Source: an uncultured Pseudomonadota bacterium | Lineage (GTDB): Bacteria > Pseudomonadota > Alphaproteobacteria > RF32 > CAG-239 | Assembly: GCA_902763905.1 (NCBI GenBank) | Contig: CACWUA010000001.1 | Location: 66,291-130,290, forward strand | Direction: 5' to 3' | Length of the DNA stretch: 64,000 bases | In this document: piece after piece, positions 2,195 through 27,015 of the stretch | Position numbering within the stretch: position 1 is the stretch's first letter | Layout: each line of letters starts with the position of its first letter | Made by a program: the position numbers and the translations under genes | Notes under the pieces: generated by a model | What the model saw: the letters and a program-made list of their open reading frames with translations, nothing else | Databases searched by the model: none | Told to the model about the DNA's origin: nothing

Positions 2195-2512
2195 ATGACA
2201 CAACCTTTAACAGACAGCCAGTTCAGCGAAAATGTATTGAATGCAAAGGGATTGGTTTTAGTGGACTTTTGGGCGGAATGGTGTGGACCATGCCGTCAGC
2301 TCGGTCCGATTTTGGAAGCAATAGATAATGAGATTGGTAAAGATGTCAAAATCTATAAAATGAACGTGGATGATTCGCCGGAAATCGCAGGACAACTGGG
2401 GATTCGCAGTATTCCGACTATGTATCTGTTTAAGGATGGCAAACAGATAGATGTTAAAGTAGGCTTAAATACTCAATCTGCCATTCAGGATTGGGTTCAA
2501 TCATATAAATAA
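2195..2512 (+). CDS. trxA: Thioredoxin
   Basis: 105 aa with WCGPC active site and typical thioredoxin length. AAGGAG RBS upstream of the ATG. Confidence 0.95.
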   Translation: MTQPLTDSQFSENVLNAKGLVLVDFWAEWCGPCRQLGPILEAIDNEIGKDVKIYKMNVDDSPEIAGQLGIRSIPTMYLFKDGKQIDVKVGLNTQSAIQDWVQSYK

Positions 2513-18029: not shown

Positions 18030-18063
18030 TTTTCAGAACTCCTTTTTTTGCAGTTATCAAAAC

Positions 18064-18210
18064 AAAAAGACCACTCAAAAAAGTGGTCGGGAGTTCCTAA
18101 CTGCAAGAAGACAGTCCGGCTTATTCAATATATTCAGCCGGCTCCCCACCAGCGAGGAGTTATTTTCTTCTTGGGAGTTAGGATACTCCGCAGACAATCT
18201 CTTATCTGCG
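18064..18210 (-). ncRNA. Pseudoknotted structured RNA element, copy A (unclassified family), ending in an intrinsic terminator
   Basis: Minus sense: hairpin GCAGA-taagagattg-TCTGC, then a GGAGT...ACTCC helix whose loop (CCTAACT..CAAGAAG) pairs with downstream CTTCTTG..AGTTAGG. GGGGAG...CTCCC encloses hairpin CCGGC-tgaatatattgaataa-GCCGG. Terminator GACCAC-ttttttga-GTGGTC-TTTT. Helices covary with copies B and C. Confidence 0.8.
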
Positions 18211-18216
18211 ACTCCC

Positions 18217-18244
18217 ATATTACAGAAAATATAACAAAAAGCAA
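18217..18244 (-). promoter_or_regulatory. Sigma70-like promoter of RNA copy A
   Basis: Minus sense TTGCTT-N16-TAATAT, with the -10 box 6-7 nt upstream of the first RNA hairpin. Same -35 box and spacing as copy B. Confidence 0.6.
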
Positions 18245-18292
18245 CGAAAATATTTAAGGTATCACCTTTGTTAGACGTTCTGTAATCAAAAC

Positions 18293-18439
18293 AAAAGACC
18301 ACTCAAAAAAGTGGTCGGGAGTTCGAAACTGCCAATAGTCAGTCCGGTCTATTCAATATATTCAACCGGCTCCCCACCAGCGAGGAGTTATTTTCTATTG
18401 GTGAAGCTTCGACACTCCGCAAACAATCTCTTATTTGCA
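18293..18439 (-). ncRNA. Pseudoknotted structured RNA element, copy B (tandem to copy A)
   Basis: Same architecture as copy A with compensatory changes: GCAAA/TTTGC, CCGGT/ACCGG, CGAAGCT/AGTTTCG, CCAATAG/CTATTGG. Identical terminator GACCAC...GTGGTC-TTTT. Confidence 0.8.
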
Positions 18440-18445
18440 ACAGTC

Positions 18446-18473
18446 ATTGTAATCAGTTTGCTTAAAAAAGCAA
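18446..18473 (-). promoter_or_regulatory. Sigma70-like promoter of RNA copy B (divergent from uvrA)
   Basis: Minus sense TTGCTT-N16-TACAAT immediately upstream of the RNA 5' hairpin. Confidence 0.6.
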
Positions 18474-18539
18474 GTTTTATTTATTAAACAGTTGCGAAAT
18501 GCGGTTGATTGGTATATATCGGATACAACGGAGAAAAAA

Positions 18540-21359
18540 ATGGCAGAAAGTAAATATATCGAAATCAAAGGCGCACGACAGCACAATCTTAAAAACGTTA
18601 ATGTAAACATTCCGAAAAACAAACTGACGGTAATTACCGGCTTATCCGGTTCGGGCAAATCGTCATTGGCATTTGATACGATTTATGCCGAGGGGCAGCG
18701 GCGCTATGTGGAAAGTCTGTCGGTATATGCGCGGCAGTTTCTCGATTTAATGAACAAGCCGGATGTCGATTCGATAGAGGGTTTATCGCCGGCTATTTCG
18801 ATTGAGCAAAAAACCGTTTCCCATAATCCGCGTTCTACCGTCGGCACTATTACCGAAATCTATGATTATATGCGTTTGTTGTGGGCGCGTGCCGGCACTC
18901 CGTATTCGCCGGCCACCGGTTTGCCGATTGAAGCTCAGTCTTTAACCCAAATGGTTGATAAAATTTTGGAATACCCGCAGGGCTCAAAACTGATTTTGCT
19001 TTCGCCGATAGCACGCGGCAAAAAAGGCGAATTTAAAAAAGAATTTGCCGAGTTGCAAAAAAAAGGTTTTCAGCGTTTGGATATCGATGGCGAGATTTAT
19101 AACATTGAAGAACTGCCGAATTTAAATAAAAATATCAAACATAATATTGAAGTGGTAGTTGACCGCATTGTGATAAAAGAGGGGATTCAAACCCGTGTGG
19201 CACAATCGGTGGAAACTGCGCTGAAATTGAGTGACGGACTTTTGTATGTAGAGAACATCGGCGATAAATCGCGCACTACGTTTTCTTCTAAATTTGCTTG
19301 TCCGGTGTCGGGATTTACCATAGAAGAAATCGAACCGCGGTTGTTTTCGTTCAACAATCCGCAGGGAGCTTGTCCGCATTGCGGTGGTTTGGGCGCCAGT
19401 TTATATATGGATCCGGAGTTGGTGGTGCCGAATGAAAATCTGAGTCTGGCCGGCGGCGCGATTGCCCCGTGGTCGGTCAGCAGCCATTCGATTTTTTATC
19501 GCCAAACCTTAAATTCTTTGTGTGAATATTTGGATATTTCCAACAAAACCCCGTGGAAAGATTTACCGGCCTATGCACAGGAGACAATTCTCTACGGTTC
19601 CGGCAATCGCTGTGTGCCGATGGTTTTCTCCAAATGGGTATCGGATAAACCGTTTGAGGGCGTGATTCCGAATTTGGAGCGGCGCTTTGTGGAAACCGAT
19701 TCGGCGGCGGTGCGTGATGAACTTTCGCATTATCAATCGGCCGCACCGTGTGAAGTGTGCCACGGCAAGCGCCTCAAACAAGAGGCTTTGGCTGTTAAAA
19801 TTGCCGGACTTGATATTATGGATGCCAGTAATATGTCGGTAAAACAGGCTTTGGCTTGGTTTAGTGGTGTGGAAGAACAATTAACCCCGCAAAAACGTGA
19901 AATTGCCCGCAAAATACTAAAAGAAATCCGCGAAAGATTAAGCTTTTTAAATAATGTCGGACTGGATTATTTAACCTTGTCGCGCCAATCAGGAACGCTC
20001 TCCGGCGGAGAGGCACAGCGGATTCGCTTAGCTTCGCAAATCGGTACGGGATTAACCGGAGTGATGTATGTTTTGGACGAGCCGTCAATCGGTTTGCACC
20101 AACGCGATAACGATAAACTTCTCGACAGTTTGCGCCGTTTGCGCGATATCGGTAATACAGTGATTGTGGTGGAGCACGATGAAGATGCCATGCGTGCTGC
20201 CGATTATCTGGTGGATATGGGGCCTTTGGCAGGTACCAAAGGAGGCGAAGTCACAGCTTGCGGCACGGTGGATGAAGTTTTGCATAATCCAAACAGCCTG
20301 ACTGCCAAATATTTGAACGGCGAAAAAGAAATTACCCTACCGCTTAAGCGCCGTAAAGGTAACGGCAAATTTTTGGAACTTAAAGGCGCACGTACCAATA
20401 ATTTGAAAAACGTTGATTTAAAAATCCCGCTCGGCACTTTTACCTGTGTTACCGGTATTTCCGGCAGCGGTAAATCTTCGCTGATTTTGGAAACGCTGTT
20501 TAAGGCAGTTGATAAAGAAATGAATGGTAGCCGCGTACCACCGGGGCCGTATGATAAACTCATCGGCTTGGAAAATATTGATAAAGTGATAGATATTGAT
20601 CAATCACCGATTGGCAGGACTCCGCGTTCCAATCCGGCCACTTATACCGGTGTGTTTACCAATATTCGCGATTGGTTTGCCGAGTTGCCGGAAGCCAAAG
20701 CACGCGGCTATACTTCGGGCTATTTTTCGTTTAATGTTGCCGGCGGTCGTTGCGAGGCTTGCAAAGGCGACGGCGTGATGAAAATCGAGATGAACTTTTT
20801 GCCGGACGTATATGTTCCGTGCGATGCCTGCCACGGCACGCGTTATAACCGCGAAACACTGGAAGTTAAGTTTAAGGACAAATCGATTGCCGATGTTTTG
20901 GATATGACCATTGACGACGCTTACAAGTTTTTTGAGAACATTCCGGCGATTAAGCGGCGGTTGGATTTGTTGCGCCGTGTGGGTTTGGGATATGTCAAAC
21001 TCGGACAGCCGGCACCGACACTTTCCGGCGGCGAGGCACAACGCATTAAACTTTCCAAAGAGTTGAGCAAAAAAGCCACCGGTAAGACATTATATATCTT
21101 GGATGAGCCTACAACCGGTCTGCATTTTGAGGATATTCAGCACCTGCTTGACGTTTTGGAAATGCTGGTGGATCAGGGCAACACCGTGGTGGTTATCGAA
21201 CATAATCTCGATGTGATAAAAATGGCGGATTATATTGTTGACGTGGGGCCGGAGGGCGGCGACGGCGGCGGCACGATTGTGGCTCAAGGCACACCGGAGG
21301 AAGTAGTGAAAAACAAAAAGAGCTTTACCGGTAAATATCTGAAAGGCAAGTTGAAATAA
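18540..21359 (+). CDS. uvrA: Excinuclease ABC subunit A
   Basis: Canonical start [19 protein letters not shown] preceded by GGAGAAAAAAA. Two ABC modules (GLSGSGKSS and GISGSGKSS Walker A; LSGGEAQRI twice). Zn-finger CxxC pairs ([30 protein letters not shown]). Confidence 0.95.
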
Positions 21360-21590: not shown

Positions 21591-21617
21591 ATTTTTTAAC
21601 TCCTTTTTGTTATATTA

Positions 21618-21762
21618 AAAAACCACCCTAAATTCCTTTAAGGTGGGGAGTTCGTAACTGTAAGAGAACAGTCTGATTTATTCAATATATTCATCAGCTC
21701 CCCATAATAGAGGAGTTATTTTCTCTTAAGGAGCTACGACACTCCGCAGACAATCTCTTGGC
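21618..21762 (-). ncRNA. Pseudoknotted structured RNA element, copy C
   Basis: Same block order. Compensatory helices CTGAT/ATCAG, CGTAGCT/AGTTACG, TAAGAGAA/TTCTCTTA. Terminator CCACC-ttaaaggaatttag-GGTGG-TTTTTT. Perfect TATAAT (plus 21769-21774) just upstream of the 5' hairpin. Confidence 0.75.
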
Positions 21763-21850
21763 TGCAAGATTATACTAAACAATTTGCAATAAAAGGGCAA
21801 GCAAAAAATTTTGAGCTTGCATTTTTTGCTTATTTTTATATGTTTGAATT

Positions 21851-23460: not shown

Positions 23461-24564
23461 TTACCTCCCTCGTCCGATTTGTTTTACATGTTGCTGACCG
23501 TCGCGGGTTGTAGTTACGATATAGGTGTCGGTAACGGTTTTGTGATAGCGGTGACCGATGCCGTAATTTTTGCGGCGGCTTTTATGTATGATTTGTGTAG
23601 CGATTTCTTCCGGCGCCAAATATTTTTCATGCGGTTCGCGCAACATTAATTTAGCCGCAACAGCCGGATGTACGGCATAAGGATTGACCGCCGTGGTGTC
23701 TTTGCTGCCGTCTTCATTGGTGGTAATTTCCATACCGGCCGGAAATTCGCTGCCATAGCCGCCGACAATCCATATTTGTTCGCCGTTTTCGTTTTGATGA
23801 ACGTCTTTACCTATATAAACGTAACCCAAAGCGGCTCTCATTTCCTTACCGTAGGTTTCTGTCAGTTGAATATAAGTTTCTTTAACCTGAGTTGCAAATT
23901 TATTCAATTCGGAATTACCGCGTTTGCGTGATGCATCACACGTCGGCTCATTAAATTTACGCATCAACGCCTCCCATTCCGGTTCGCCACGATTCAGTCT
24001 GGCTTTAACCATATCTATGGCACTGATGTCGCGCTTGTTTTCAATTTGGGTGCGGATACTCGGTTCGCCCAACAGGTACATGGCAATTTCATACGCTTTT
24101 GAAGTAGGGTTGCAATATTCAACCACATTCATCAACGCGGTGTTTCCTGATTTATCGCCCTGAGCGTTAACATCAGCGCCGTTTTCGAGCGCTGTTTTTA
24201 CGCCTTCCAAATCACCGCAGGCCGCCGCTTGCAACAAGGTTGCATCAACTTCGCTTTGCATTTGCTTTAAGCTGTCGAGTGCTTGCTGATATTGCATCAG
24301 GCGAAATTGATATTTTTCTCTAATCAGTTTTATTTTGGTTGAATCCGTAAAGCGCTCGGCATATTCTTGTTTTATGCACATATTTTCATAAGGCGAGGCC
24401 ATAATTGAATCCGCGGTCGGGTTACGTTTTTGCACCAAATCTTTACCTTCCTGTTCCGGTTTTTTCAATATTTCATCACAACTTGTCATAGTCGAGCCTG
24501 CGGTGAACAATCCTCCTATAACGATGGTGGCTTGTAACATTTTATTTTTCAATTCTTTAAACAT
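23461..24564 (-). CDS. Ankyrin-repeat lipoprotein
   Basis: Signal with lipobox-like TMTSC. LQAAACGDLEGVKTALENGADVNAQGDKSGNTALMNVV plus a following repeat are ankyrin-repeat consensus. Confidence 0.75.
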   Translation of the reverse strand: MFKELKNKMLQATIVIGGLFTAGSTMTSCDEILKKPEQEGKDLVQKRNPTADSIMASPYENMCIKQEYAERFTDSTKIKLIREKYQFRLMQYQQALDSLKQMQSEVDATLLQAAACGDLEGVKTALENGADVNAQGDKSGNTALMNVVEYCNPTSKAYEIAMYLLGEPSIRTQIENKRDISAIDMVKARLNRGEPEWEALMRKFNEPTCDASRKRGNSELNKFATQVKETYIQLTETYGKEMRAALGYVYIGKDVHQNENGEQIWIVGGYGSEFPAGMEITTNEDGSKDTTAVNPYAVHPAVAAKLMLREPHEKYLAPEEIATQIIHKSRRKNYGIGHRYHKTVTDTYIVTTTRDGQQHVKQIGRGR

Positions 24565-24584: not shown

Positions 24585-25574
24585 TTATTTATGGCCGCTG
24601 ATGGTATGTGAACGAGCCAGATTGGTGGCCACCGTAAAGTTGACATGGCTCGGTTGTTCGTGCGGTTTATTGTATTCTACCGCAAACTGCATTCCGCCTT
24701 TTCCGATACCGCCGCGGACCGATAAGTCTCTGTCCTGAGTGATGACGGTTTCGACAATGGATTTCCAGCCGCGGCGCAAGTCGTACCACGCGCGCGCCCC
24801 CAAGTTGCCGTAATGTTGTTTGGCATCGTAGTGGCCGAAGATTTTAGCGCCGTATGCTTTGCTGCGGATACCGATTGAACCGAGCAGTTGGCGATGTTCA
24901 CCACCCATACGCATGGCAGCGGTCATATCGAGTTTTACACCGCTGTTTTCCAAGAGGGTTAAGCCGCATTTGGCCCAAAAGTCGGACTTTTTCGGATTAG
25001 GCACCACATAAAAACCGTCACCGGCGCTGCCTATCATACCGAGCTCAATGAACTGCCCGCCTTTTTCGTAGCCGAAGACGATACGGTCGCTGGCATTGCC
25101 GAAACGGCCGATGTCATAAGCGTCGGCATAATAACTGAGCGGGTTATCAAATACAGCTCCGGCCTCGGTAGCCTCACGACCGGCCTTAAAGGTAATTACG
25201 GCACCGTTGCCGAGTTGCTTACCCAATTCAAGCATAAATTTAATGGTAATCGCCGACCATGCTTCGTTGCTGTAAATAATGCCTTCCTGACCGGAAAGTT
25301 GCGCATAATCACCGCGGCTGTTTGCGGCTCTTGCCATAAATGACGGGGCAAAGTCGTTATAAAAAGTTGTCTTGCCTTCTTCCACGGTTAAGCCGGAAAT
25401 GTCGGCGGCATTAAGGGTTAAAGATATACGGTCAATGTTGCGGTCTGAAACCGGTTGCGTAGCCTTTTGCTCTTGGGCAACGGCAGTGGCTGCGGTTAAA
25501 AGCAGAGTGTTTATAACAAAGTTGCGCAAGTTGAATTGTTCCATAACGCTGTTTGATTTAGATTGTTCTCTCAT
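24585..25574 (-). CDS. Secreted/outer-membrane protein of unknown function, paralog 1
   Basis: Signal peptide ...NTLLLTAATAVA-QEQK. Collinear similarity to ORF 25624..26610 along the full length (FMLELGKQLGNGAVITFKAGREATE vs FMLELGRLTGNGGVITFKAGREKTE). Confidence 0.7.
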   Translation of the reverse strand: MREQSKSNSVMEQFNLRNFVINTLLLTAATAVAQEQKATQPVSDRNIDRISLTLNAADISGLTVEEGKTTFYNDFAPSFMARAANSRGDYAQLSGQEGIIYSNEAWSAITIKFMLELGKQLGNGAVITFKAGREATEAGAVFDNPLSYYADAYDIGRFGNASDRIVFGYEKGGQFIELGMIGSAGDGFYVVPNPKKSDFWAKCGLTLLENSGVKLDMTAAMRMGGEHRQLLGSIGIRSKAYGAKIFGHYDAKQHYGNLGARAWYDLRRGWKSIVETVITQDRDLSVRGGIGKGGMQFAVEYNKPHEQPSHVNFTVATNLARSHTISGHK

Positions 25575-26715: not shown

Positions 26716-27015
26716 TCAAATTAAAGAAAATCGTCTGTTTTGGAGTCTTTGTTTCCAAACAGCTGTGCGCATCCGTTGCACCTTTTTTGCGGGCGCAACC
26801 AAAAACGGTCTTAAATCATCAGAAAAGATTATCTTGTTTTGATTAAGAGTAAAAACGGCGATATTAACCGTATTTAAAACAGATGAACCGCAATGTTCAT
26901 CGGATATAATCTGCGGAACATTTTGTTCCTGAATATGAACCGCCGCAGCGGACATTTTAATAAAATTGCGAATGTGGCTCGTCACCTTCATACAGGGGTG
27001 GGGGTCATCACTCAT
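26716..27015 (-). pseudogene. Truncated third copy of the secreted-protein paralog family
   Basis: The 5' end is nearly identical at nucleotide level to paralog 2 (ACAGGGGTGGGGGTCATCACTCAT plus RBS). Translation MSDDPHPC...QEQNVPQIISD...FSDDLRP follows the family, then diverges and stops. Only about 400 nt of space remains for a roughly 990-nt gene. Confidence 0.6.

Follow-up and report, generated by a model that had tools for sequence, protein, structure and literature searches.

A new structured RNA family preceding small XRE-type regulator genes in uncultured rumen Alphaproteobacteria

Small structured RNAs that precede genes of XRE-type regulators have been described in Bartonella, where at least nine copies of a 194-203-nt RNA with a terminator-like end, the Brt RNAs, are each located directly upstream of a poorly transcribed gene for an XRE helix-turn-helix (HTH) protein, Trp (Tu et al., 2016; PMC5387305). 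Brt1-9 are 74-100% identical to each other and share a probe region, the Trp proteins have a length of 108-152 aa, and the system has been described as confined to Bartonella (Tu et al., 2016; PMC5387305). According to RNA-seq and Northern blot, the RNA is very abundant, while read-through to the HTH gene is low (Tu et al., 2016; PMC5387305). Here, a stretch of 64,000 nt from an uncultured alphaproteobacterium (positions 66,291 to 130,290 of contig CACWUA010000001.1, assembly GCA_902763905.1; referred to as the window) is analyzed, which contains three intact RNA units (A, B, and C), of which A and B are arranged in tandem and A and C each precede a gene for a 74-aa XRE HTH protein. It is concluded that these units belong to a genuine and previously unclassified family of structured RNAs, which has a nested fold and an obligate partnership with a mini XRE regulator.

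Brt/Trp is the closest described system. Both systems are alphaproteobacterial and consist of a highly structured small RNA in several copies, whose 3' end resembles a terminator and which lies immediately upstream of, and in the same orientation as, a short XRE HTH gene that seemingly depends on read-through, and in both the copy number differs between genomes. They differ in the length of the RNA (194-203 nt for Brt versus ~146-155 nt here), in the length of the protein (108-152 aa for Trp versus 74 aa in the window) and in their carriers, which here are metagenome-assembled genomes (MAGs) of uncultured rumen Alphaproteobacteria and not Bartonella. On Bartonella grahamii pBGR3 the end of Brt is 19 nt away from the HTH start, which is similar to the 27-55 nt seen in the present family, and tandem arrays of complete units, as seen here, were not described for Brt. 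The Brt probe and the BrtF oligonucleotides gave no matches in the window within 3 mismatches, and the covariance model of the present family gave no match at E <= 10 in two genuine Brt loci taken from Bartonella plasmids (L057 and L058). Read directly, the Brt sequence looks unrelated to the units, and BLASTP of the pBGR3 Trp protein (118 aa) against the 74-aa protein resulted in no alignment at E <= 100. As oligonucleotides, real Brt loci and the Trp protein were all without similarity, membership in Brt/Trp was rejected; the resemblance is architectural, not familial.

The units also share properties with transcription-terminating riboswitch leaders, namely the position in a 5' leader, a domain of several covarying helices whose junction and loop nucleotides are conserved, and an intrinsic terminator right after the closing stem and before the ribosome-binding site (RBS). 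As in such leaders, no promoter intervenes between the covarying domain and the gene. Unlike for riboswitch leaders, however, no convincing conserved antiterminator was found in the units, they match no riboswitch model of Rfam, they are duplicated with their own promoters so that upstream copies lead no gene, and the downstream gene encodes a regulator and thus gives no clue to a ligand. Type III toxin-antitoxin loci such as ToxIN are composed of a promoter, tandem RNA repeats, a terminator that sets the RNA to protein ratio, and a small protein gene. Their repeats are processed to 34-36 nt and do not have promoters of their own, and the protein is an endoribonuclease toxin, which processes the repeats and is inhibited by them. 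The order of RNA, terminator and small protein gene is shared with the present locus, but here a repeat measures ~215-230 bp and comprises a promoter and a terminator of its own, and the protein is an XRE HTH protein.

When the whole window was searched against Rfam 15, no match at gathering score was obtained, in line with an earlier sequence-only reading of this DNA, which had not been able to place the RNA in any known class. In related loci only tRNA and 6S RNA reached their thresholds, both located outside the units. The only weak matches, to sRNA-Xcc1 (RF02221), had scores of 29.6 and 29.4 bits versus a threshold of 53 bits (E = 0.03) and, being near-identical copies, count as a single observation. 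The 3' half of A- and B-type units can be threaded onto the outer stem and the two hairpins of sRNA-Xcc1, but the threaded fold ignores the covarying arms of the units, and in 11 divergent loci sRNA-Xcc1 gave no match at E <= 1. Because the matches stay below threshold and do not recur in divergent members, membership in sRNA-Xcc1 was also rejected.

Structure of the RNA family

The three minus-strand units were found where the sequence-only reading had placed them, and the blocks that it named as shared are exact in all three. The 15-mer TGAATATATTGAATA has three exact matches in the window, one per unit, and the 19-mer AAGAGATTGTNTGCGGAGT likewise has three, versus 0.06 expected. Unit B has the same architecture as unit A, with different sequences of arm 1, arm 2, and the hairpin P4. 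The paired substitutions listed for the 5' hairpin, the central hairpin and both arms are correct in an alignment of A, B, and C. The assignment of the shared blocks as unpaired had to be revised, as most of these blocks (GGAGT, ACTCCTC, GGGGAG and AACTCCC) are invariant helices and the proposed loop AAGAGATTG is AA-GAGA-TT, i.e. part of an 8-bp 5' hairpin with a GAGA/GAGG tetraloop.

Homologs were collected by pattern scans. A genome scan with the 5' block identified true copies solely in MAGs of uncultured Alphaproteobacteria (goat rumen, roe-deer reticulum and similar sources), and a metagenome scan with an independent central pattern brought in more divergent units; chance matches without a unit made up 7 of the 13 genome loci and 10 of the 39 metagenome loci. 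In this way 42 non-redundant intact units were gathered from rumen Alphaproteobacteria MAGs and metagenomes. Tandem arrays comprise up to three intact units with differing arms. Mosaic units also occur: in MAG RGIG3536 (L009 2011-2452, set against window positions 18050-18490) the promoter of window unit A stands before a body of the window-B type, and the promoter of window unit B stands before a unit that combines arm 1 of A with a new arm 2. Such combinations point to gene conversion or recombination among units of an array.

The RNA takes a three-way-junction fold that is supported by covariation. It starts with P1, the 8-bp 5' hairpin, which has other short loops in place of the GAGA/GAGG tetraloop in some lineages. 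This is followed by a long interrupted stem formed by GGAGU/ACUCC, then arm 1 (8 bp) and then arm 2 (7-8 bp). The three-way junction bears two hairpins, an invariant one formed by CUCCUC and GGGGAG and one of 6 bp, P4, whose 14-nt loop GAAUAUAUUGAAUA is conserved. Four helices covary heavily among the 42 units. The raw MAFFT alignment was rejected for counting pairs, as arm 2 was mis-registered, and was replaced by an anchor-parsed, N-padded alignment, in which the same segments are present in every unit. In this curated alignment, 98.4% of the cells of the nested model are paired and 26 pairs have changed on both sides; none of 500 shuffles matched this, and slid controls pair at 32-48%. The compensatory pairing on which the sequence-only reading was based therefore held when more homologs were aligned. 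Since the register of arm 2 had been picked to maximize pairing, an alignment-free test of cognate versus non-cognate arms was added. Cognate arms 2 paired at -7.1 kcal/mol compared to -0.9 ± 1.8 kcal/mol for non-cognate combinations (31 distinct 5' arms), and the corresponding values were -6.7 versus -2.2 kcal/mol for arm 1, -6.9 versus -3.0 kcal/mol for P4 and -9.4 versus -4.8 kcal/mol for P1. G-U pairs further account for more than 100 cells of the alignment, among them GU:19 at pair 38-135 as well as UG:40 at pair 72-83. Read from the opposite strand, each of them would become an A-C mismatch, which fixes the transcribed strand and indicates that the constraint acts on RNA. Thus, the units are confirmed as a real structured RNA family with compensatory base-pair changes.

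The sequence-only reading had arranged the same arms in a native H-type pseudoknot, in which arms 1 and 2 bridge the loops of two real stems, P2 and P3. The covarying arms, however, nest within each other, and crossing only results from two particular pairings, namely that of the 5' GGAGU to the middle ACUCC (P2) and that of GGGGAG to the 3' CUCCC (P3). With the alternative partners, GGAGU with the 3' ACUCC and CUCCUC with GGGGAG, a fully nested three-way junction is formed. Because the four GGAG/CUCC blocks hardly vary, both models are ~98% paired, and the arms, which certainly pair, fit either of them. P2 and P3 are 97-100% pairable across the 42 units, but show no compensatory changes, and the sole variable P2 pair breaks in 6 units, compared to 4 breaks and one compensatory change for its nested alternative. 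In locus L050, GGAGA occurs together with a 3' UCUCC while the middle block is unchanged, which is compensatory in the nested model only, and in L036 a change is confined to the middle block, which is harmless in the nested model only. The inner hairpin has undergone five U-G to C-G changes without a break. For units A and C, both the minimum free energy (MFE) and the centroid structure coincide exactly with the nested fold (z = -9.06 and -6.72, respectively), and unguided RNAalifold also returned this fold, with 39 pairs of which 25 carry compensatory changes. In addition, the loops of two 5-bp stems would have to be bridged by 15 bp in the pseudoknot, which would be sterically demanding. As it is not needed to explain the covarying pairs and the informative variants lean to the nested fold, the pseudoknot is unnecessary and slightly disfavored; taken as the native structure, it is regarded as improbable and was not retained.

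Promoters, terminators and the linked HTH gene

Each of the 39 distinct upstream regions has a CTTG(C/A)-N16-19-TAnnnT motif at a fixed position, and 4-7 nt separate the end of the -10 box from P1. The promoter sites of the units were not listed by a scan for the strict E. coli-type consensus, because their -35 box is CTTGC-like. For units A and B the sequence-only reading had proposed own promoters with a TAnAAT -10 box and own terminators consisting of a GC-rich hairpin and a T-run. The terminators were recovered by the terminator scan; promoter-like boxes are indeed present, but unit A has TAATAT as its -10 box, which does not follow the proposed consensus. Together, this shows an arrangement in which each unit would be an autonomous promoter-RNA-terminator cassette.

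In unit B, a TTGCTT-N4-AAGCAA inverted repeat spans the -35 box and the spacer. Similar TTGC-N6-10-GCAA repeats over the -35 box and spacer were found in 12 of the 39 promoters, including those of unit C and of units in L004, L005, L036, L040, and L056, versus 0.6 expected, whereby the lineages are not independent. This makes the repeat a candidate operator to which the HTH protein encoded downstream could bind.

The link with the HTH gene had not been mentioned in the sequence-only reading. Among 47 units, 32 are followed by an HTH gene that is detectable by tblastn within 27-97 nt, and 5 by another unit. The remaining 9 units, apart from a relic copy (unit D, see below), are followed by an open reading frame (ORF) of 69-74 aa of the same type or by its start at a contig end. 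Conversely, all four loci found via homologs of the HTH protein have the RNA upstream, in one case as a tandem array of three units. The RBS preceding the linked HTH genes is conserved as AAGGAGTT or GGGAGTT. The gap between the unit and the HTH gene is too small for a separate promoter and therefore the HTH gene would be transcribed by read-through only, on which, judging from this layout, it must physically depend. It was also observed that the RBS is exactly complementary to the invariant AACUCCU/AACUCCC blocks of the RNA and resembles its 5' GGAGU block.

The two HTH ORFs of the window match only general XRE/Cro-type models of Pfam (HTH_31, HTH_3, and HTH_25), with scores around or just below the cut-offs. 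Against PADLOC and NCBIfam, the HTH protein gave only generic XRE matches, all below the cut-offs, and a sequence search of the PDB resulted only in weak matches to HigA-like and MBF-like HTH proteins. An assignment to a defense or toxin-antitoxin family was rejected, as the matches are generic and sub-threshold. The protein family is tiny, with 10 clusters among 5.8 billion proteins. The non-helix columns of the RNA are 83-91% identical where the HTH proteins are 27-37% identical. That the RNA core outlasts the protein in conservation suggests a conserved cellular partner.

Interpretation of the RNA-HTH module

The explanation that is favored, with moderate confidence, is that the units represent a new family of small structured RNAs which at the same time serve as 5' leaders for a tiny transcription regulator of the XRE type. 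A sigma-70-type promoter (CTTGC-N16-19-TAnnnT) would drive each unit and the strong intrinsic terminator would end most transcripts as free ~146-nt RNA. Leaky termination would yield a small amount of HTH protein, so that the terminator would set the RNA-to-regulator ratio, and the HTH protein may feed back on the promoter of the unit via the TTGC-N-GCAA inverted repeats. The free RNA itself is probably functional, because tandem upstream units, which do not touch the HTH gene, keep intact and independently compensated helices, and because conservation is higher for the RNA core than for the protein.

Several points weigh against this explanation. The use of the promoter, the efficiency of the terminator, the abundance of the RNA and the extent of read-through are predictions from the sequence, and a purely cis-acting, riboswitch-like role may apply. 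For the conserved 14-nt loop, no convincing complement above AT-rich chance matches was found in the window. The proposed operator rests on approximately six partly related lineages, and the A-type promoter does not contain the repeat. Part of the sequence conservation was imposed by the searches: GGGGAG, GAAUAU...GAAUA, and ACUG are invariant in the metagenome units, and the 5' block is conserved in the genome scan, because the search patterns demanded it. Independent evidence for conservation is thus limited to blocks outside each scan's own pattern; the GG.G, CUCC, CAG, and CUCCC blocks, which were not imposed on the metagenome set, are invariant in 42/42 units.

A rival explanation is a riboswitch-like leader, in which the junction would be the aptamer for a ligand or factor and the four invariant GGAG/CUCC blocks would toggle between two folds. 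The nested fold (first block with fourth, second with third) would terminate transcription, whereas in the P2/P3 fold (first with second, third with fourth) GGGGAG and the preceding bases would invade the 5' arm of the terminator and allow read-through into the HTH gene. The layout of promoter, structured domain, terminator, RBS and gene without an intervening promoter is the classic one for such leaders, and the blocks with potentially two partners (GGAG, CUCCUC, GGGGAG, ACUG, CAGU, and CUCCC) are all invariant, while helices with a single partner covary freely. In A-type units GGU+GGGGAG can pair with CUCCC+GACC, a fold that is weakly recognized by the sRNA-Xcc1 model, and the first pair of this extension forms in 15 of 20 distinct combinations compared to 11.5 ± 1.4 in shuffles. 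Beyond the first pair, however, the extension is conserved in two sub-lineages only, in C-type units it would remove just 2-3 of the 10 terminator pairs, and at the decision point the nested fold exceeds the alternative one in stability by 14 kcal/mol. An antiterminator formed by extended P3 was therefore not accepted as a finding, as the signal is marginal, limited to certain lineages and energetically weak, and it is kept as part of this rival. The tandem units that do not adjoin a gene but stay intact with their own promoters also argue against such a leader, as does the regulated gene, a small regulator that offers no hint of a ligand. Overall, a sensing leader is considered possible but rather unlikely. 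A wider version, for which the likelihood is put lower still, is a bistable riboregulator of a new class. Here the GGAG/CUCC quartet together with ACUG/CAGU would toggle between the nested and the P2/P3 fold in response to a ligand or a conserved factor and thereby set the expression of the mini-regulator, while the terminated RNA would also act in trans, so that the module would be a self-contained, duplicable circuit that spreads through genomes.

The module could also be a selfish or defense RNA-protein pair comparable to type III toxin-antitoxin systems, in which RNA and protein neutralize or control each other. The gene order, as generally known from ToxIN, corresponds to that of type III loci, the module occurs in multiple copies, which in divergent genomes are dispersed among unrelated housekeeping genes, one copy is decaying, the protein diverges fast and units are mosaic. 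The protein, however, is a plain XRE HTH protein and not a nuclease, with only sub-threshold generic matches in PADLOC and NCBIfam, and the ~215-230-bp repeats with own promoter and terminator are different from short processed repeats. Close relatives hold modules at the same chromosomal positions, and conservation is far stronger in the RNA than in the protein, whereas cognate co-evolution would predict the opposite. A toxin-antitoxin function is therefore considered improbable. Even less can be said for a repeat that acts at the DNA level, such as a repetitive extragenic palindrome (REP)- or miniature inverted-repeat transposable element (MITE)-like element or an array of protein-binding sites. 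The units are indeed multi-copy, tandem and intergenic, with palindromic motifs in the promoter region, but their pairing is kept through many G-U pairs, their orientation with respect to promoter boxes, terminator and downstream gene is fixed in all units, and terminal inverted repeats or target duplications are lacking, which makes this reading very improbable.

The RNA family with its linked mini-regulator adds a covariation-proven RNA family to the poorly studied uncultured gut and rumen Alphaproteobacteria. It represents a second, independent circuit of the Brt/Trp type, in which a terminated structured RNA lies ahead of a mini XRE regulator, and this suggests that the design recurs in Alphaproteobacteria and is not a peculiarity of Bartonella. 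An Rfam family could be seeded with the curated alignment and model, and the annotation of rumen metagenomes would benefit. The putative conserved partner of the RNA core, whether ligand, protein or RNA, could be found experimentally, and interest in the family would be higher if a ligand-responsive or bistable mechanism were true.

Coordinates and genomic setting

Table 1. Positions of RNA units, associated signals, HTH genes and neighboring genes in the window.
Feature	Position	Strand	Basis and remarks
RNA unit A, ~146 nt	18064-18209	minus	Covariance-model match, 95.8 bits; MFE structure equals nested fold; terminator scan
Unit A, P1 hairpin	18209-18190	minus	
Unit A, three-way-junction domain	18189-18089	minus	
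Unit A, terminator-like hairpin, followed by U-tract (T-run)	18088-18069	minus	Terminator scan
RNA unit B, tandem, upstream of A	18293-18438	minus	Covariance-model match, 90.1 bits; alignment
Unit B, terminator-like hairpin with T-run	18316-18297	minus	Terminator scan
RNA unit C, same fold as A and B	21617-21765	minus	Covariance-model match, 82.8 bits
Unit C, terminator-like hairpin, 10 bp, with U-tract (T-run)	21646-21623	minus	Terminator scan
Unit D, degenerate fourth copy	2549-2705	plus	nhmmer, E = 1.3e-14; covariance model, 39.2 bits
Promoter-like boxes, unit A	TTGCTT 18244-18239; 16-nt spacer; TAATAT 18222-18217	minus	Sequence; -10 box ends 7 nt before P1
Promoter-like boxes, unit B	TTGCTT 18473-18468; 16-nt spacer; TACAAT 18451-18446	minus	Sequence
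Promoter-like boxes, unit C	TTGCCC 21800-21795; 17-nt spacer; TAGTAT 21777-21772	minus	Sequence
Overlapping TATAAT, unit C	21774-21769	minus	Sequence
XRE-family HTH gene 1, 74 aa	17805-18029	minus	ORF, Pfam; starts 34 nt past end of unit A
XRE-family HTH gene 2, 74 aa	21366-21590	minus	Starts 26 nt past end of unit C; 76% identical to gene 1
HTH gene RBS	18044-18037 (AAGGAGTT) and 21597-21604	minus	
uvrA-like gene	18492-21359	plus	
Thioredoxin-like ORF	2195-2512		Upstream of unit D
Tandem paralog 1, ~328 aa	24585-25574	minus	
Tandem paralog 2, ~328 aa	25624-26610	minus	
Truncated third paralog	26716-27015	minus	
Ankyrin-repeat protein	23461-24564		

Two RNA-HTH modules in the same orientation bracket the uvrA-like gene (Table 1), with tyrS, anmK, and queH nearby. 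The bracketed arrangement is kept in related MAG loci (L002, L004, L009, L015, L017, and L034), and close relatives have modules at the same uvrA, tyrS and queH positions. The modules form flanking direct repeats of ~0.4 kb, which could mediate deletion or duplication of the uvrA-like gene. In divergent carriers (metagenome loci L019-L055) the module is located beside unrelated housekeeping genes, i.e. rplO, rplA/rplK, rpsD, gyrB, a murJ-like gene and HU. It behaves as a scattered, duplicable cassette that is not tied to one operon, and conserved neighbor genes were rejected as a clue to function, since the flanks of divergent modules are these unrelated genes. In MAG RGIG4780 a 6S RNA gene (L001 677-834, minus strand; 55.3 bits versus a gathering score of 46.4) lies directly after the HTH gene of a module.

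Unit D was detected first by profile search and then by the covariance model. Its arms 1 and 2 are non-complementary, GGGGAG and the 3' CTCCC are mutated and the terminator has decayed, and tblastn identified no HTH homolog nearby. It appears to be a decaying relic of the module. A thioredoxin-like ORF is located upstream of it.

Further along the window, two tandem paralogs and a truncated third one have the N-terminus MSDDPHPC in common. The first of them (24585-25574), the only one of the tandem paralogs that was scanned, had no match in Pfam. A gene for an ankyrin-repeat protein adjoins these paralogs.

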